In this document: one piece after another, positions 1-6,844 of the stretch
How positions within the stretch are numbered: position 1 is the stretch's first letter
How the letters are laid out: every line of letters begins with the position of its first letter
Assembly: GCA_964503465.1 (NCBI GenBank)
Contig: CAZCYZ010000001.1
Span: 298,306-362,305 of the forward strand
Reading direction: 5' to 3'
Length of the DNA stretch: 64,000 nucleotides
Origin: an uncultured Gammaproteobacteria bacterium
Lineage (GTDB): Bacteria; Patescibacteriota; Microgenomatia; UBA12405
Made by a program: the position numbers and the translations under genes
The notes under the pieces: generated by a model
What the model was told of the DNA's origin: nothing
The model's database searches: none
The model's input: the letters and a program-made list of their open reading frames with translations, nothing else

Positions 1-96
1 TTGAGGAAAGAAATGCGCACCCTCGCTCTCGATCTTAATTTCGAAGAGGCCATCAAGCTCCGTGATAAGATTAAGGAATTAGAAGTTATCTCAAAA
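1..96 (+). CDS. uvrB: 3' end of excinuclease ABC subunit B (UvrB); the gene begins upstream of the window
   Basis: Frame 1 translates to LRKEMRTLALDLNFEEAIKLRDKIKELEVISK*. This matches the C-terminal UVR domain of UvrB, which interacts with UvrC. The stop codon is at 94-96. Confidence 0.5.
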
Positions 97-102
97 TAAC
101 TT

Positions 103-855
103 ATGAATATCAAAATCGCTACTTGGAATATCGCTGGAGCCAGAAAGATAAAATCACTCAACCGTTGGGATTATCAGGACGAGGAACTCGACTATTTTGT
201 TGCTCAACTTAAAACCTTATCCCCAGACATCATCTGTCTTCAAGAAAGTCATTCTAACCCTTCCAGGTCGCAGGCAGAAGAAATTACCAAAAAAATCGGG
301 TTTAGTTTTTTTGCTGACTGTCCTATGTCGGAAGCAAGAATTGACCCTCAATATCAAACCTCTATCTCCATTATCTCCAATACCCCAATATCCAATATTG
401 AAACCAAAAAACTCGATTACCCAGAATTTAAATTAGTTTTTCCTGACGGTAAAGAAGCCAGAAAATACGACAAATATTATCTTTCAACCACTATTCAAGG
501 TATCCAAGTCGTTAATATCCAAGTCCAACCACTGCACATTTGGGGGCACAATTATGAAACTAGCCCTGGAAGTGAATTAGCTCTTAAGTACCAACAATAC
601 TTTCTGGGCTTTACTGAACCACTAATCCTTTGTGGTGATTTGAACACCAATCAGCCCGATCAGGTATATTCGGAGTTCTTTGGTAAGTTTAAGCTTGCAG
701 AAGCCCTTCCAGATAAAATCACTCGTCCTGACCAGGGAAACAAATCAAGGAAATCAGACCACATATTTTATTCAAGTAGTATCAAAAAAATTAATTCCGA
801 CGTCGTTGTCACCGACACAGACCACTATCTTTGTTATTCGGAGTTTCAACTCTAA
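103..855 (+). CDS. endonuclease/exonuclease/phosphatase (EEP) family protein
   Basis: 250 aa. The N-terminus reads IKIATWNIAGAR, followed by ICLQE, and the C-terminus has SDHIFYSS followed by D..DH. This is the typical catalytic motif order of EEP-family enzymes. The gene sits between the uvrB end and uvrA. Confidence 0.6.
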   Translation: MNIKIATWNIAGARKIKSLNRWDYQDEELDYFVAQLKTLSPDIICLQESHSNPSRSQAEEITKKIGFSFFADCPMSEARIDPQYQTSISIISNTPISNIETKKLDYPEFKLVFPDGKEARKYDKYYLSTTIQGIQVVNIQVQPLHIWGHNYETSPGSELALKYQQYFLGFTEPLILCGDLNTNQPDQVYSEFFGKFKLAEALPDKITRPDQGNKSRKSDHIFYSSSIKKINSDVVVTDTDHYLCYSEFQL

Positions 856-912
856 ACTACCTCTTCTGGATTAGGAGTAGTTATTTTCGTACCCAAATAA
901 AACCCAAATCTC

Positions 913-978
913 TGCTACAATATAATTCATCATCATGATTCCCTCCATTCTTCAAGGGAGGGTGAAGGGTGGGTTTTT
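913..978 (+). promoter_or_regulatory. putative extended -10 promoter (TGcTACAAT) plus a 7-bp stem hairpin directly upstream of uvrA
   Basis: The sequence tgctacaat at 914-922 resembles an extended -10 element. A hairpin tccctcc/attcttcaa/gggaggg lies at about 940-962. A purine-rich stretch aagggtggg lies 6-14 nt upstream of the ATG at 979. Confidence 0.25.
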
Positions 979-3645
979 ATGATCGACAAAATTATTGTTA
1001 AAGGAGCTAGGGAAAATAATCTTGCCAATGTCTCCTTTGAGTTTCCCAAAAACAAGCTAGTTGTTTTCACCGGTGTTTCTGGATCCGGCAAATCTTCCAT
1101 GGCCTTCGATACTCTTTTTGCCGAAGGCCAACGTCGTTATGTCGAAAGTTTGTCAAGTTACGCCCGTCAGTTCCTTGGTAATCTTAAACGACCCCAGGTT
1201 GATCTTATCGAAGGCCTGTCGCCTAGTATTGCCATCAATCAAAAAGCTATTTCCCACAACCCCCGCTCAACCGTTGGCACCGTTACCGAGGTCTATGATT
1301 ACCTCCGCTTACTCTTTGCTCGAATTGGCCACCCTCATTGCCCAAACTGCGGTCGTGAAGTTTCCCCTCAAACCAGCAAACAAATTGTCAACCAAATTTT
1401 GGACATCGCCAAATTAAATGCTGTCGGTTTAGATCATTACCGCTTTTTAGTTTTGGCACCATTGGTCCGGAATCGTGCCGGTGACTTTCGTGGTTTGGTC
1501 GAAAATCTTCGAAAACAAGGTTACAAATGGATCCGTATCGATAATCAAGTCGTCGATCTATATTCTGATTTTGGTATTGCCAAAACCAACAAGCACAACA
1601 TCGATGCTGTTATTGATCGGATTTCAATTAATAAAGACAGTCTCAAAGAACCCAAGATAATTTCTGACCGTTTAATTGATGACGTCGAAGCCTCCATGAA
1701 GTTAAGCAATGGCTTGGTTGTTGTTGGTCATGTTACCGACAACTCACTTGAGTTTCCCGACAAACCTACCCAAGTTACTGACACTCTCTATTCCGAAAAC
1801 TACGCTTGCCCTGTCTGCAATTTATCTCTCCCGGCCCTTGAACCCAGTTTGTTTTCTTTTAATTCCCCCCAAGGTGCCTGCCCCGAATGTAAGGGTTTGG
1901 GTTTTAAATACCAAATTGATCGTAGTAAGTTTCCCGAATGGAAGGCTAGGATGCTTGAGGCTAGATTTTTTAGCAGTACTTCCGAAAATGTCCGGGACGA
2001 ACTCTCCCGTTTTATGTCCCGCAAAGATTGTCCTGTTTGTCTTGGTTCTCGACTCAATCCCGAAGCCCTGTCAGTCCATATTTTTGGTCAAAATATTTAC
2101 CAGATTTGTCAACTGCCCATTGACAAACTTTGGCAGTTTATCAGCCAGCTTCCCCATGAACTAAAAAGTAGTCAGGAGATCGAAATTCTAACTCCCATCC
2201 AAGGCGAAATTAATTCTCGTCTAGAATTCTTACTTGCCGTTGGTCTTGACTATCTTTCCCTCGATCGTGAGGCCGGTACTCTTTCTTCCGGTGAATCCCA
2301 GCGAATTCGATTGGCTTCTCAAATTGGTACCGGTCTGACTGGAGTACTTTATATTCTTGATGAACCCACTATTGGTCTTCATCCCCGCGACAATGATCGT
2401 CTTATCGCCACTCTCAAGAAACTTCGGGAGCTAGGTAACACTGTTGTTGTCGTTGAACACGATGAAGATGTCATTCGTAACGCCGATTATCTAGTTGATT
2501 TTGGTCCCTTTGCTGGCCACTTGGGTGGCAACATTATTGCCCAGGGCTCTCTTGATGACATCAAAAAATCTTCCAAGTCCCTTACCGGTCAATATCTATC
2601 AGGTAAAAAATCTATTTCTTCCAACCAACCCACAACTCGTAACTCTCAACTAATAACTATTACCAATTGTTCTCAGTTTAACCTCAAGAACATAAATGTT
2701 TCCTTTCCCGTTGGCAAGTTTATTTCTGTCACCGGTGTTTCCGGTTCCGGCAAATCAACCCTGGTTCACGATACTATTTATGCTGGTTTGAAAAAACAAA
2801 TTTATGGTGCTTATTACGACACTATTGGTGCGTTTGACCACATAACCGGTTGGGAACGTATTAAAGATGTTTTACTAGTCGATCAATCTCCCATTGGTCG
2901 CACCCCCAGAAGTAATCCCGCCACCTATACAAAACTTTTTGACGACATTCGTGTTCTTTTGGCCAAAACTACCGAAGCTCAAATTCGAGGTTTTAGTAGC
3001 GGCCGTTTTTCTTTTAATGTCAAAGGTGGTCGCTGTGAGGCCTGTGAAGGTCAAGGGCAAATCAAAATTGAAATGCAATTTTTACCCGATATCTATGTTA
3101 CTTGTGATCAATGTCACGGTACCAGGTTTAAAGACGAAACCTTGGAGGTTGAGTACAAGGGTAAAAATATTGCCGAAATTCTTGATATGTCAGTTGACGA
3201 AGCTGTTAATTTTTTTGGCAATATCCCTAGTCTCAAGCGTAAGCTAGTTACCATTGAAGAAGTTGGCTTGGGCTATCTTCGCTTGGGTCAACCTAGCAAC
3301 ACTCTCTCCGGCGGCGAGTCACAGAGGTTAAAAATAAGTCGGGAACTAGTCAAAAAGAAAAGCAATCACACCCTTTATGTTCTTGACGAACCTACCACTG
3401 GCCTCCATTTTTATGATGTTGACAAACTTATCAAGGTACTTCGTAAATTAGTCGACATGGACAACACTGTTATGGTTATCGAACACAATCTTGATGTTAT
3501 CAAAAATACCGACTGGGTTATCGATCTTGGGCCCGAAGGCGGGGACAAAGGTGGCCGTATCGTCGCCTCTGGTCCGGTTGCCGATATTATAAAATGCCAA
3601 AACAGTTACACCGGCCAGTATCTCAAAAAGCACCTCAACGCCTAA
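979..3645 (+). CDS. uvrA: excinuclease ABC subunit A (UvrA)
   Basis: 888 aa. It has two ABC ATPase modules, with Walker A motifs GVSGSGKSS and GVSGSGKST. Zinc-finger CxxC pairs are present (CPNCGRE, CPVCN, CPECKG, CEACEG, CDQCHG). The LSGGESQR signature occurs twice. Confidence 0.95.
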   Translation: MIDKIIVKGARENNLANVSFEFPKNKLVVFTGVSGSGKSSMAFDTLFAEGQRRYVESLSSYARQFLGNLKRPQVDLIEGLSPSIAINQKAISHNPRSTVGTVTEVYDYLRLLFARIGHPHCPNCGREVSPQTSKQIVNQILDIAKLNAVGLDHYRFLVLAPLVRNRAGDFRGLVENLRKQGYKWIRIDNQVVDLYSDFGIAKTNKHNIDAVIDRISINKDSLKEPKIISDRLIDDVEASMKLSNGLVVVGHVTDNSLEFPDKPTQVTDTLYSENYACPVCNLSLPALEPSLFSFNSPQGACPECKGLGFKYQIDRSKFPEWKARMLEARFFSSTSENVRDELSRFMSRKDCPVCLGSRLNPEALSVHIFGQNIYQICQLPIDKLWQFISQLPHELKSSQEIEILTPIQGEINSRLEFLLAVGLDYLSLDREAGTLSSGESQRIRLASQIGTGLTGVLYILDEPTIGLHPRDNDRLIATLKKLRELGNTVVVVEHDEDVIRNADYLVDFGPFAGHLGGNIIAQGSLDDIKKSSKSLTGQYLSGKKSISSNQPTTRNSQLITITNCSQFNLKNINVSFPVGKFISVTGVSGSGKSTLVHDTIYAGLKKQIYGAYYDTIGAFDHITGWERIKDVLLVDQSPIGRTPRSNPATYTKLFDDIRVLLAKTTEAQIRGFSSGRFSFNVKGGRCEACEGQGQIKIEMQFLPDIYVTCDQCHGTRFKDETLEVEYKGKNIAEILDMSVDEAVNFFGNIPSLKRKLVTIEEVGLGYLRLGQPSNTLSGGESQRLKISRELVKKKSNHTLYVLDEPTTGLHFYDVDKLIKVLRKLVDMDNTVMVIEHNLDVIKNTDWVIDLGPEGGDKGGRIVASGPVADIIKCQNSYTGQYLKKHLNA

Positions 3646-3841
3646 TTATTGCCTCACGCCAACCCTCATTTCCAAATTCTGTAATTTCACCTGGAGTTAG
3701 CCAAGACTGTTGAATTGTGTGTCCAGTTTTTGGATCTATTCGCACCGCTCTCACAAATAACTCATTTCGACGCGCTGGATCAACATATTTTGGTGGTCTC
3801 GAGTTAATCTCTCCCAGTCGCGCCGTTCTTTCGTCCATCAA
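3635..3841 (-). CDS. hypothetical small protein (68 aa, TTG/ATG start)
   Basis: An ORF on the opposite strand in a 210-bp gap downstream of uvrA whose composition looks coding. No motif was recognised. It overlaps the uvrA stop by 11 bp. Confidence 0.2.
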   Translation of the reverse strand: MMDERTARLGEINSRPPKYVDPARRNELFVRAVRIDPKTGHTIQQSWLTPGEITEFGNEGWREAIIRR

Positions 3842-3854
3842 AAAAGATTATAAT

Positions 3855-4058
3855 ATGCTCACCATGAGTTTAAAAGCCAGCTTTCTCAAAATTTACGCCG
3901 ATATACCGCTCGGGGCTCGGGGAGAAATTATTGCTGTTATCAACGATGAGCCCATTACCTGGAACAGTGCTCGGGTTGAGATCGAGAACGATACCGCTAT
4001 CGGTAAAAAGATTCTCGACCAATTAGTTGATCTCAAAATTATCGATGCCCAAAATTAA
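3855..4058 (+). CDS. hypothetical small protein (about 67 aa)
   Basis: The start was moved to the ATG at 3855 (MLTMSLKASF...), which is preceded by TATAAT at 3849-3854. The longer 3717 start would overlap the minus-strand ORF. No recognised domain. Confidence 0.3.
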   Translation: MLTMSLKASFLKIYADIPLGARGEIIAVINDEPITWNSARVEIENDTAIGKKILDQLVDLKIIDAQN

Positions 4059-4263
4059 CCCTCTTGCCAAAAAACTCGCTCTTGCTCGCATTGCTGCTTA
4101 TTCTGAAAAAATCAAAATTCACCTTGGTGGTCAATCTACTCTTACTCGTCGGCAACTTTTGTCTCACGTCAAAAACGAAACCGCTACTGGTCAGAAGATA
4201 GTTGATATTGAAATAGAATTCTTACGTGATTTAGCCCATGGTCAAATTTATCGCGATGCCTAG
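4045..4263 (+). CDS. hypothetical small protein (72 aa)
   Basis: Starts at the ATG at 4045 (MPKINPLAKKLALARIAAY...) and overlaps the upstream small ORF by 14 bp. The two look like a co-translated pair. No recognised domain. Confidence 0.3.
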   Translation: MPKINPLAKKLALARIAAYSEKIKIHLGGQSTLTRRQLLSHVKNETATGQKIVDIEIEFLRDLAHGQIYRDA

Positions 4264-4900
4264 AAGTTTTCTTATCACCCGCCCCAATCATGATATTGCT
4301 ACCGCCTATCTTTCTGTTTATTCCCAGCTTCTGATTGATCAGGCAGTCAAAAAACAATTTACCGTCGTTGATCTTGCTGGCCAACTAGCCAATCCCAAAA
4401 ATTTTCATCAAAAAATCAAATCCCAGTTCTCTTTAATCCTTCTTAATGGTCATGGTTCATCACACATCATTAACGGTCAAGACAATCAACCCCTGATTAC
4501 TGCTCCAGTATCCGAATTTGATTTCCAATCCGCCATTATCTATGCCCGCAGTTGCCAAACCGCCACTGCTCTTGGTCCGTATCTTATTCTGCACCACGCT
4601 ACCGCCTTTATTGGTTACCAAAACGATTTTATTCTCGTCACTCTCGACGAGTCAGACCCTATTCATGACCCACTGGCCAAGTTTTTTCTCACCCCTAGTA
4701 ATGCTATTGTTAGCAGTCTTATCAACGGTAGAACTGTGGGTTATTCCAATCGACGTTCCAGAAAAATGACGCTTAAAAATCTCCAATCGGTTCTCAAGAG
4801 TCGTGTCAAAACTCGTCGCGAAATTGCTGCTTATCTTTGGCACAATATTAAATATCAACTAGTTTTGGGTAATGATCAATCTCGAATCTCTACCAACTAA
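4256..4900 (+). CDS. hypothetical protein with a caspase/gingipain-like (clan CD) His-Gly...Cys arrangement
   Basis: 214 aa from MPRSFLITRP. A hydrophobic strand followed by HG (FSLILLNGHG) comes about 34 residues before a second hydrophobic strand followed by Cys (SAIIYARSCQTA). This layout is the hallmark of clan CD peptidases. The ORF overlaps the uvrC start by 29 bp. Confidence 0.3.
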   Translation: MPRSFLITRPNHDIATAYLSVYSQLLIDQAVKKQFTVVDLAGQLANPKNFHQKIKSQFSLILLNGHGSSHIINGQDNQPLITAPVSEFDFQSAIIYARSCQTATALGPYLILHHATAFIGYQNDFILVTLDESDPIHDPLAKFFLTPSNAIVSSLINGRTVGYSNRRSRKMTLKNLQSVLKSRVKTRREIAAYLWHNIKYQLVLGNDQSRISTN

Positions 4901-6122
4901 ACCCGGTGTCTACATTTACCGTAACCTAGCAGGGGAAATTATTTATGTTGGCAAAGCCATCAACCTCAAAAAGCGAGTCTCCCAGTATTTTCAACGCGAT
5001 GACGCTTTGGGCCCAAAGACGGCTCGGCTCGTCTCTCAAATCAATTCCATCGAGACCAAAACTGTCGACTCCGAAATTGAGGCTCTAGTCCTCGAAGCCA
5101 GGCTTATCAAAAAACATCGTCCAAAATACAACTCACTTCTCAAAGATGACAAAAGCTATCTTTATATTACTATTTCTCACGACCACCTCCCCGTTATTTC
5201 CACTGCTCGAGTTACCAATTTACCCCCAAAATCTGACATCTATGGCCCATTTCCCAACGGTTCTGCTGTCAAATATCTTTTAAAAACCATTCGTCACGTT
5301 TTTCCTTATCTCTCCAAAAAACATTCATCATCTTCTTGTCTATATTGCCATCTTCACCTCTGTCCTGGTCCCGATCCAGACATCAAAGTTTATCGCCAAA
5401 ACATCGGTAAAATCAAAAAGATTCTTAACGGTCACTTTAAGCTTTTGCAACGCCAACTTCATCGGGAAATCAAACTTTTCACTGCCTCAGAAAACTTTGA
5501 GCTAGCTATTACTGCCCGTGATCAACTCCAGGCTCTCAACTATATTGTTTCCGGTTGGCACCACCTCAGTAATTTTTTTGGCCAGGTCAACCTCCCCGAA
5601 GACCGTGCCAATCACGCCGTTAACCAACTTTCCCTTGTCCTAAAAATTAACCCTATCCGTCGTATTGAATGTTTCGATATCTCTCAGCTTGGTAGTCACT
5701 TTTTTGTTGGCTCGATGACTGTTTGGCAAGACGGGCATCTCGATTCAGGTCAGTACCGTAAGTTTAGAATTCGTACCAAATTTACTCCCGACGACCAGTA
5801 TATGATACGCGAAGTAGTTTACCGTCGTCTCAAACACCCAGAGTGGGGGACGCCCGATTTAATTGTGGTTGATGGCGGTAAACCTCAAATCTCCGCCGTC
5901 TCCATTATCGACAATCTACCACCGACGATCAAAATTATTGGCCTAGCCAAAAAATTTGAAACCATAGTCTATAAAAAAAATACTAATTTTTTTGAAATTA
6001 ATCTTCCTGACAATTCTTCTGCCCTTAATCTTCTCAAATCCCTTCGCAACGAAGCCCATCGTTTTGCCAACAATTATCGTCGCCAACTAATTAGTCGTAA
6101 ACTGTTAGAATCAACTAAATGA
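4872..6122 (+). CDS. uvrC: excinuclease ABC subunit C (UvrC), short form lacking the C-terminal (HhH)2 domain
   Basis: A GIY-YIG motif is present (GVYIYRN...EIIYVGKAINLKKRVSQYF). A UVR-like helix follows (ITARDQLQALNYI). The RNase H-like endonuclease region has IECFDISQLGS. The C-terminus carries EAHRFANNYRRQ. At 416 aa it is much shorter than E. coli UvrC (610 aa). Confidence 0.85.
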   Translation: MINLESLPTKPGVYIYRNLAGEIIYVGKAINLKKRVSQYFQRDDALGPKTARLVSQINSIETKTVDSEIEALVLEARLIKKHRPKYNSLLKDDKSYLYITISHDHLPVISTARVTNLPPKSDIYGPFPNGSAVKYLLKTIRHVFPYLSKKHSSSSCLYCHLHLCPGPDPDIKVYRQNIGKIKKILNGHFKLLQRQLHREIKLFTASENFELAITARDQLQALNYIVSGWHHLSNFFGQVNLPEDRANHAVNQLSLVLKINPIRRIECFDISQLGSHFFVGSMTVWQDGHLDSGQYRKFRIRTKFTPDDQYMIREVVYRRLKHPEWGTPDLIVVDGGKPQISAVSIIDNLPPTIKIIGLAKKFETIVYKKNTNFFEINLPDNSSALNLLKSLRNEAHRFANNYRRQLISRKLLESTK

Positions 6123-6844
6123 AACCTCTGATCTCCGTTGTTGTTCCCGCCTATAACGAAGAAAAGCTTCTTCCGGGTTGTCTTACTAGTCTTCAAAAAC
6201 AATCCTTCACTAAACCCTTCGAAATTGTTGTGGTTGACAACAACTCCACCGATAGGACCCCGACAATTGCCAGGCAATTTGGTGTCAGAGTAGTTACAGA
6301 AAGGAACAAGGGAGTTATTTTTGCCAAGCAACAAGGTTACCTTTCTTCTCGTGGTAATTTTGTTGTCTTTGTTGACGCCGACTGTATTGTTCCGCCTACG
6401 TGGTTACAAAACATAATTTCCCCCTTCCACGATCCTACTGTTGTCGCCGTTACTGGGCCCTATACCATTATCGATGGCCCAAAGTTCCATCAATATTATG
6501 CTCGATTTGCCCAATTTATCACTTGGATTTGTTATCGATATTGGGGAAAAAATTTATATTTATCCGGAGGTAATTGCGCTTATCGGAAAACAGTTCTTGA
6601 CAAGTTTCACTGCTTTGATGTTACTAAAGGTGTGGGGGAGGACGAATATGGCATTCTTTCCAAGGTCTTAAAATATGGACGGGTGATCTATTGCCCAAAA
6701 ACTCGCATTTTAACATCTGGCCGACGAGCCAGTAGAGGATTTTTTGATTTTCTTTCCCAAATGTTGGTTCGTTACAGTCTCAACTTTATTAGTCTTCGCA
6801 CCTTTGGCAAAGCAATTTTTCCACCCTACAGTGATTTTCGTTAA
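6119..6844 (+). CDS. family 2 glycosyltransferase (GT-A)
   Basis: ISVVVPAYNEEKLLPGCLTSLQKQ...VVDNNSTD, then a DxD-type VFVDADC. The start overlaps the uvrC stop (ATGA). Confidence 0.7.
   Translation: MKPLISVVVPAYNEEKLLPGCLTSLQKQSFTKPFEIVVVDNNSTDRTPTIARQFGVRVVTERNKGVIFAKQQGYLSSRGNFVVFVDADCIVPPTWLQNIISPFHDPTVVAVTGPYTIIDGPKFHQYYARFAQFITWICYRYWGKNLYLSGGNCAYRKTVLDKFHCFDVTKGVGEDEYGILSKVLKYGRVIYCPKTRILTSGRRASRGFFDFLSQMLVRYSLNFISLRTFGKAIFPPYSDFR

Follow-up and report, generated by a model that had tools for sequence, protein, structure and literature searches.

Three small genes without annotation lie between uvrA and uvrC in the genome of an uncultured bacterium of the candidate phyla radiation (CPR), which raises the question of whether they belong to nucleotide excision repair (NER) or happen to lodge beside it. 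The DNA concerned is a 64,000-nucleotide stretch of assembly GCA_964503465.1 (contig CAZCYZ010000001.1, positions 298,306 to 362,305), referred to below as the window, and the genes, here named s1, s2 and p214, are part of a run on its plus strand (positions 1-6844) that comprises, in order, the 3' end of uvrB, a hydrolase gene of the EEP superfamily, uvrA, s1, s2, p214, uvrC and a GT2 glycosyltransferase gene. An initial annotation had described the uvrB end, the EEP gene, uvrA and uvrC as co-directional, which the open reading frame (ORF) listing and family scans bear out, and had taken co-transcription of the three genes with uvrC to imply a functional link to DNA repair. The account favoured here, with moderate confidence, is that of a uvr backbone with two cargo slots, the second of which holds an autonomous cassette encoding a caspase-fold protease.

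The s1-s2-p214 cassette and its distribution

The cassette is tightly packed: s1 (p67, 64 amino acids) occupies positions 3864-4058, s2 (p72, 72 amino acids) 4045-4263 and p214 (214 amino acids) 4256-4900, with overlaps of 14 nt between s1 and s2, 8 nt between s2 and p214, and 29 nt between p214 and uvrC. The ORFs that the initial annotation had placed at 3855, 4045 and 4256 are real, conserved and overlapping as it described, although the first most likely starts at the ATG at 3864 (MSLK...), as in the s1 homologues, rather than at the alternative start at 3855.

A word-index search with p214 yielded 37 homologues, each of about 215 amino acids, from a CPR source and without Pfam domains; the same kind of search gave no homologues of s2. 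A hidden Markov model (HMM) of p214 matched 2435 cluster representatives at E <= 1e-3, and 387 at E <= 1e-30, in a library of 1.84 billion proteins clustered at 50% identity, and a metagenome scan with an 18-sequence subset of the alignment added 80 loci. In the 91 cassette loci that were fetched, s1 and s2 HMM matches lie directly upstream of p214 in 82 and 85 cases, respectively, and every miss coincides with a contig edge. Wherever upstream DNA exists, the three genes thus keep their order and strand and remain tightly spaced or overlapping, and all three are conserved as proteins, with indel-free cores, across distant CPR lineages. Furthermore, the 8-nt overlap of s2 and p214 recurs from Shapirobacteria to Daviesbacteria, and therefore translational coupling of the two genes is suggested.

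The cassette lies between uvrA and uvrC in the window and in three closer relatives (L081-L083, where L numbers denote fetched loci). Elsewhere it occupies unrelated contexts, including a Daviesbacteria genome and several other uncultured CPR contigs, one of which is labelled Paceibacterota. Dereplication of the 91 loci left 67. One or more flanking genes are available within 5 kb for 64 of them, and among these uvr genes are found near the cassette only in L081-L083 and in L119, which shares a contig with L086 and carries uvrB-uvrA 5 kb downstream of the cassette. The 406 genes that flank the 64 loci fall into 300 clusters, the commonest of which is present in just 7 loci. At least one neighbour of the accessory or defence-island type occurs within 5 kb in 21 of the 64 loci (RhuM-Fic, Fic, an AAA_14-DUF4143 ATPase, AbiEii, HsdR, a Schlafen-type helicase, an MNT-like nucleotidyltransferase and SNase), and the housekeeping neighbours include TsaE, a protein with a 50S-ribosome-binding GTPase domain that is presumably YchF, MurJ, LepA, UPRTase and RuBisCO. 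That the cassette is an autonomous three-gene module, widespread in CPR and hitherto undescribed, is well supported. Because it mostly occurs away from repair genes, its tie to NER looks positional rather than functional, and the functional link to repair proposed in the initial annotation finds no support in the distribution of the cassette, its domain content or the promoter motifs described below.

The cassette probably has a promoter of its own. A TATAAT box on the plus strand (3849-3854) lies 9 nt before the s1 ATG. Of 50 loci, 25 show a TAnAAT hexamer at a distance of 4-14 nt before s1 (with an extended TGn in 10 of these), compared with 16% of control ORFs from the same loci and about 6% in shuffles. 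The box is kept in L082 and L083, inside the final codons of uvrA. This arrangement would yield a leaderless or short-leader mRNA. No terminator-like site was found between 3646 and 4872, and since p214 overlaps uvrC, read-through from the cassette into uvrC is likely in this lineage. The co-transcription with uvrC that had been proposed is a reasonable inference, because the 29-nt overlap of p214 and uvrC is repeated in L082 and L083; co-direction and tight packing of the genes are likewise borne out. It has to be amended in that the cassette carries its own -10-like box.

Several side observations concern this junction. Similar -10-like boxes stand 6-14 nt before the start of uvrB in L003, L006, L008, L014 and L119, as they do before s1 in half of the 50 loci, and even control ORFs have them at a rate of 16%. 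Leaderless mRNAs, or mRNAs with a very short leader, may thus be common in these CPR genomes. The spacer between uvrA and the cassette measures about 210-220 nt (3646-3854, or to 3863 given the ATG at 3864) and is occupied by a minus-strand ORF of 68 amino acids (3635-3841) that is convergent with uvrA. The highest promoter-like score of the region (3874-3847 on the minus strand, in an AT-rich box at 3847-3874) would drive this ORF. The gene caller skipped it, searches of all fetched loci and of the gap ORFs gave no homologue, and its reading as a gene is unsupported.

The predicted fold of p214 and its small partners

The AlphaFold2 (AF2) model of p214 has a pLDDT of 96.2 and a pTM of 0.92. 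In fold comparisons it is nearest to the catalytic domains of the gingipains RgpB (18.8) and Kgp (17.8), followed by SAVED-CHAT (16.2), separase (14.0), metacaspase-9 (13.8), Craspase TPR-CHAT (13.5) and legumain (12.4), and in a Foldseek search gingipain R entries were the sole matches at E <= 1e-3. Clan CD peptidases contain a central six-stranded sheet with flanking helices, and their catalytic dyad consists of a His on the loop past strand 3 and a Cys past strand 4 (PMC4357240). The p214 model consists of six strands and five main helices in an order that fits this description. His66-Gly67 follow strand 60-64, which is strand 3, and Ser99-Cys100 follow strand 94-98, which is strand 4. All 177 full-length members of the family have His66, Gly67, Cys100 and either Asp or Glu at position 13, and 175 have Asp138. 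At the level of the predicted structure p214 is thus shown to adopt the clan-CD (caspase-hemoglobinase) fold, with His66 and Cys100 as the putative catalytic dyad. The conserved Asp/Glu13 and Asp138 may, in addition, hint at a preference for a basic P1 residue, by analogy with gingipains and metacaspases.

By sequence, p214 stands outside the described clan-CD families (C11, C13, C14, C25, C50, C80 and CHAT). It has no match in Pfam, including Peptidase_C25, in NCBIfam or among PDB sequences, and CHAT is reached by just 2 of 36 members (E 0.036). We conclude that p214 represents a new minimal family of putative clan-CD cysteine peptidases. Its strand 1 begins at residue 4, and because there is no N-terminal extension the protein is predicted to be cytoplasmic.

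The comparison with known clan-CD systems underlines how reduced this family is. With gingipains R and K (MEROPS C25) p214 shares the fold, but only 11-13% identity, and unlike them it lacks a signal peptide, a pro-domain, an Ig-like domain and a T9SS C-terminal domain; moreover, gingipains occur in Bacteroidota, whereas p214 is found in CPR and always behind two small genes. The CHAT or caspase-like proteases that operate in SAVED-CHAT, in Craspase (Csx29 with Csx30/Csx31), with the anti-sigma factor DdvA or as activators of gasdermins offer a second comparison. In contrast to these, p214 carries no sensor domain (SAVED, TPR or NACHT), the cassette has no CRISPR, CBASS or gasdermin neighbours, and s1 and s2 are unrelated to Csx30/31.

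The two small proteins are less readily placed. Neither has a match in Pfam or NCBIfam. s1 is the most conserved part of the cassette, with 50-75% identity where p214 shows 35-70%, and residues F7, Y11, R19, E21, W33 and E39 are invariant; a structural match to HhH or HTH domains was sought for s1 and none was found. Profile searches, which the initial annotation had recommended for the three proteins, returned no family model for any of them and gave sub-significant matches of s2 to OmpR/PhoB-type regulators: the s2 profile matched OmpR-type response regulators (5vfa, E 0.063) and CovR (E 0.48) in the PDB, and the Pfam model Trans_reg_C appeared in 1 of 28 s2 members (E 0.048). A weak alignment of s1 with s2 falls on the same segment in BLASTP (E 3e-4 over 14 residues) and in hhalign (E 2e-3, probability 13%), a resemblance too weak to make them clear paralogues. 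The best available inference is that s1 and s2 are dedicated partners of the protease, as its substrate, inhibitor or regulator.

The uvr backbone, its cargo slots and its promoters

Related loci were collected by a scan with UvrC, keeping one genome per species, and the genes of the resulting 80 loci were mapped by tblastn. The closest belong to Candidatus Shapirobacteria and other Microgenomates. Essentially all Shapirobacteria-like loci share the order uvrB, uvrA, uvrC, GT2, a class-I aminoacyl-tRNA synthetase and a sortase, the last two on the minus strand, and uvrA is likewise upstream of uvrC, at 1.6-1.9 kb, in Gottesmanbacteria, Woesebacteria, Saccharibacteria and Vogelbacteria. The consolidation of uvr genes had seemed unusual in the initial annotation; with uvrB-uvrA-uvrC synteny in about 19 Shapirobacteria-like loci and proximity of uvrA to uvrC in other CPR phyla, the uvrB-uvrA-uvrC(-GT2) order is, judged by synteny, the ordinary backbone of Shapirobacteria-like CPR genomes, of which the window is one. 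Firmicutes have uvrBA operons, and the uvr genes are dispersed in E. coli. The CPR locus resembles these in its canonical UvrA, UvrB and UvrC and in the co-directional uvrB-uvrA pair, but differs in that uvrC is part of the cluster and that both junctions hold variable cargo.

The genes of the backbone are readily identified in the window. The uvrB fragment (1-99, 32 codons plus stop, with the UVR motif) matches model positions 631-658 of 658 of TIGR00631 (E 3.8e-4 in the family scan), and is 60-79% identical to the C-terminus of the complete UvrB found at the same place in relatives. uvrA (979-3645, 888 amino acids) scores 1269.5 bits against the NCBIfam equivalog NF001503 (cutoff 1147), and uvrC (4872-6122, 416 amino acids) 326.5 bits against TIGR00194 (cutoff 285.45). 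The GT2 gene (6119-6844, 241 amino acids), which is in synteny among relatives, overlaps uvrC by 4 nt and closes the co-directional run, beyond which convergent genes lie on the minus strand. No tRNA gene and no Rfam family at the gathering threshold was found in the 64-kb window.

The distances between the backbone genes vary considerably across the 80 loci: uvrB and uvrA are 33 to about 1600 nt apart, uvrA and uvrC 0 to about 1900 nt. The initial annotation had proposed a survey of relatives for the inserted genes, and uvrA and uvrC were found to abut, 0-11 nt apart, in L004, L008, L010 and L013, which is the outcome that it had named in advance as counting against its reading. Where the slots are filled, the cargo differs from genome to genome and is unrelated: an SDR gene, a ParA-like gene, small Cys-rich minus-strand ORFs, a family of minus-strand ORFs of about 111 amino acids, or a RelE/YafQ-type pair. 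Judged by these contents, the uvrA|uvrC slot behaves as an insertion hot spot. The same antitoxin-like gene and YafQ/RelE-type toxin gene stand in this slot in two different Shapirobacteria (L081:781-1324 and L009:9439-10001), and L001, L002, L003 and L006 hold members of the 111-residue family there instead. Remnants of the L081 pair were not detected in the uvrA-s1 gap of the window.

The first 80 related loci, considered within the locus, contain no homologue of the EEP hydrolase, s1, s2, p214 or the minus-strand ORF at 3635-3841. The EEP gene (103-855, plus strand, 250 amino acids; Pfam Exo_endo_phos E 1.3e-15) starts 3 nt past the uvrB stop. Its homologues were sought in all fetched loci and none was found, nor was a match among PDB sequences. 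It had been considered a possible AP endonuclease or exonuclease III-like enzyme; its score of 29.8 bits against the Xth model TIGR00633 falls far below the cutoff of 99.05, as does that of 20.8 against TIGR00195 (cutoff 182.55), and on these scores the assignment is not supported. From its position and its absence in relatives, the EEP gene is read as lineage-specific cargo of the uvrB|uvrA slot, placed behind the uvrB stop and ahead of the promoter motif that is conserved at uvrA. No compositional anomaly of the EEP gene or the cassette was detected, the GC content of the cassette being uniform with that of its flanks, and no convincing direct or inverted repeats, as marks of a mobile element, flank either of them.

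How the cassette came to occupy its slot can be judged from the few genomes that share it. In neighbour-joining trees of both UvrC and UvrA the window groups with L081 and L082, while L083 falls outside, among or basal to genomes that lack the cassette. Identities show one and the same ranking for p214, UvrC and UvrA. In both L082 and L083 the cassette begins 7 nt past uvrA, and the 29-nt overlap with uvrC is found in the window, L082 and L083. The cassette was thus probably resident in the slot in a Shapirobacteria ancestor, and has since been lost or replaced repeatedly; its independent insertion into a hot spot would be a less economical explanation.

The promoter region of uvrA contains a candidate regulatory element of its own (891-926, plus strand), which ends 53 nt upstream of the uvrA ATG. 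It consists of a perfect tandem direct repeat, ACCCAAAT-N3-ACCCAAAT, at 891-909 with an 11-nt period, followed by a -10 box, TACAATATAAT, at 916-926. Sequences conforming to the consensus ACCC[GA]AA-N4-A(C)CC[GA]AA were observed upstream of uvrA or uvrB in L001-L008, L014, L016, L083 and L119. The composite motif occurs once in the window and 17 times in 510 kb (the window plus CPR uvr loci), and 15 of these occurrences stand no more than 130 nt upstream of uvrA (8) or uvrB (7), one of them in Gottesmanbacteria. Chloroflexi loci amounting to 880 kb contain no copy, and 639 kb of cassette loci have it at one uvrB promoter only. Upstream of the cassette it was sought and found absent. We regard the repeat as a strong candidate operator or promoter element for an NER regulon in CPR/Microgenomates. 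The 5' untranslated region (UTR) of uvrA also contains a CCCTCC/GGGAGG hairpin (941-961) with a Shine-Dalgarno-like GGGAGG in its 3' arm, and similar hairpins precede uvrA in L002, L004, L008 and L013 and uvrB in L004. As a structured RNA the hairpin is weak (z-score -0.79; 8 pairs in RNAalifold on a poor alignment; no Rfam match).

Two of the repair proteins are themselves reduced. UvrA retains the Pfam domain UvrA_inter and lacks the insertion domain UvrA_DNA-bind (PF17755), with the deletion near residues 314-326; this domain is kept in Gottesmanbacteria UvrA (L016) and absent from the UvrA of Shapirobacteria and Saccharibacteria (L024). A full UvrC comprises GIY-YIG, UVR, RNase H and C-terminal (HhH)2 domains, of which (HhH)2 must be present for 5' incision to be efficient (PMC10085695). 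In the UvrC of the window the GIY-YIG, UVR and active RNase H domains are present; HHH and PF22920 are both missing. CPR UvrC proteins of 397-433 amino acids likewise lack the inactive RNase H-like domain and (HhH)2 (e.g. L016:10001-11278, L020:3950-5215 and L024:10001-11191), and a Chloroflexi control of 611 amino acids contains both. By domain content the UvrC of the window is a UvrC orthologue of reduced architecture, a mini-UvrC. The missing UvrA insertion domain, (HhH)2 and inactive RNase H-like domain also set these proteins apart from those of Firmicutes and E. coli. No account of the cassette, of clustered uvrBAC genes in CPR or of a CPR mini-UvrC turned up in the literature library that was searched.

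Competing explanations for the cassette

In the favoured account, that of an autonomous cassette in a cargo slot, s1, s2 and p214 would act jointly as a proteolytic module. Through translational coupling, s1 and s2 would be supplied alongside the protease as its dedicated substrates, inhibitors or regulators, and if the acidic pocket confers Arg/Lys specificity, candidate P1 sites would be Arg19, which is invariant in s1, and Arg15, which is near-invariant in s2. The cassette would be transcribed from its own -10 box, with read-through into uvrC, and its role would more likely be an accessory function in stress or conflict than in repair. As a rough apportioning, a conflict or stress module is the leading, if tentative, assignment and falls somewhat short of an even chance; a protease-controlled regulator is possible though somewhat unlikely, some other role is unlikely, and an NER accessory is distinctly unlikely.

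Several observations weigh against this account. The cassette is welded to uvrA and uvrC in three genomes, which leaves room for a tie to repair, and a second genome (L086/L119) carries it 5 kb upstream of uvrB-uvrA. DNA-processing genes are among its neighbours as well, namely DprA/ComM/YraN in L084 and SNase and HNH in L086. PADLOC gave no match for s1, s2, p214 or the EEP hydrolase, PHROGs gave none for s1, s2 or p214, and the cassette was not found in viral contigs; a defence role therefore amounts to guilt by association, and the same absence of viral-contig relatives and PHROG matches speaks against a phage origin. Since s1 and s2 have no assignable fold, their role as substrates or regulators is conjectural, and the placement of His66 and Cys100 as a dyad is read from the secondary structure of the model and from conservation.

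One rival account, in line with the initial annotation, is that the three proteins are accessory factors of NER or damage tolerance that are co-expressed with uvrC, for example by supplying DNA binding in trans to the mini-UvrC. The overlapping ORFs do reach into uvrC, with the junction kept in L082 and L083, the UvrC they adjoin lacks the (HhH)2 domain on which efficient 5' incision depends (PMC10085695), s2 faintly resembles a winged-helix DNA-binding domain, and the L086/L119 cassette lies 5 kb upstream of uvrB-uvrA. However, the mini-UvrC is CPR-wide and is also present where uvrA and uvrC abut without an insert, and in about 60 of the 64 dereplicated loci the fetched flanks of the cassette hold no uvr gene. 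The third gene, moreover, encodes a protease fold and no nuclease or DNA-binding domain, s1 gave no structural match to either HhH or HTH, and the cassette lacks the uvrA/uvrB promoter motif, all of which makes this explanation improbable. Far more doubtful still is the notion that some or all of the three ORFs are spurious overlapping frames in a non-coding spacer. They are short, overlapping and without a match to any family model, but their conservation as proteins in the same order across distant CPR, with indel-free cores, and the pLDDT of 96 for p214 reduce this possibility to a negligible one.

A protease-controlled transcriptional switch offers a different reading, in which s1 and/or s2 would be small DNA-binding regulators, possibly of a stress or DNA-damage regulon, that cleavage by p214 would inactivate. 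The model for it is provided by IrrE/DdrO, ImmA/ImmR and CapP/CapH, protease-repressor pairs responsive to DNA damage, which likewise combine a protease and small proteins in a small operon; the one described here lies among DNA-repair genes. The likeness is an architectural analogy only: proteases of the IrrE/ImmA/CapP type are COG2856 metallopeptidases and their repressors XRE-type HTH proteins, and no relation of the cassette to these systems by sequence or fold was found. The weak OmpR/PhoB winged-helix matches of s2, the weak mutual similarity of s1 and s2 (hhalign E 2e-3), the strong conservation of s1 (50-75% identity against 35-70% for p214) and the very wide spread of the family (2435 clusters at 50% identity) would fit such a switch. 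So would the direct repeat of 11-nt period at the uvrA and uvrB promoters, as OmpR-type proteins bind direct-repeat sites with such a period. On the other side, every hint of DNA binding is sub-significant and the repeat is found in genomes without the cassette at this locus; because the motif is absent upstream of the cassette, there is also no sign of autoregulation through it. We consider the switch rather unlikely, though less so than an NER accessory. Its most specific form, a LexA-independent damage or stress switch in which p214 would cleave s1 and/or s2 as winged-helix-like repressors acting on the ACCCGAA-N4-ACCCGAA repeat at the uvrB and uvrA promoters, is very unlikely. If it were true, the position of the cassette inside the NER cluster of one Shapirobacteria lineage would reflect its function.

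The favoured account of a protease cassette in a cargo slot carries a caution about guilt by association, since a gene welded to a repair operon may ride along as cargo of a slot prone to recombination. The uvrA/uvrB tandem-repeat motif provides a handle on NER and its regulation in CPR, as do a mini-UvrC that lacks (HhH)2 and a UvrA that lacks its insertion domain. The analysis also defines a large unannotated family whose members are predicted cytoplasmic enzymes of about 215 residues with a caspase/gingipain fold, always encoded behind two conserved mini-proteins. The cassette may serve as a compact and tractable system for the function of caspase-fold proteases in reduced bacteria.

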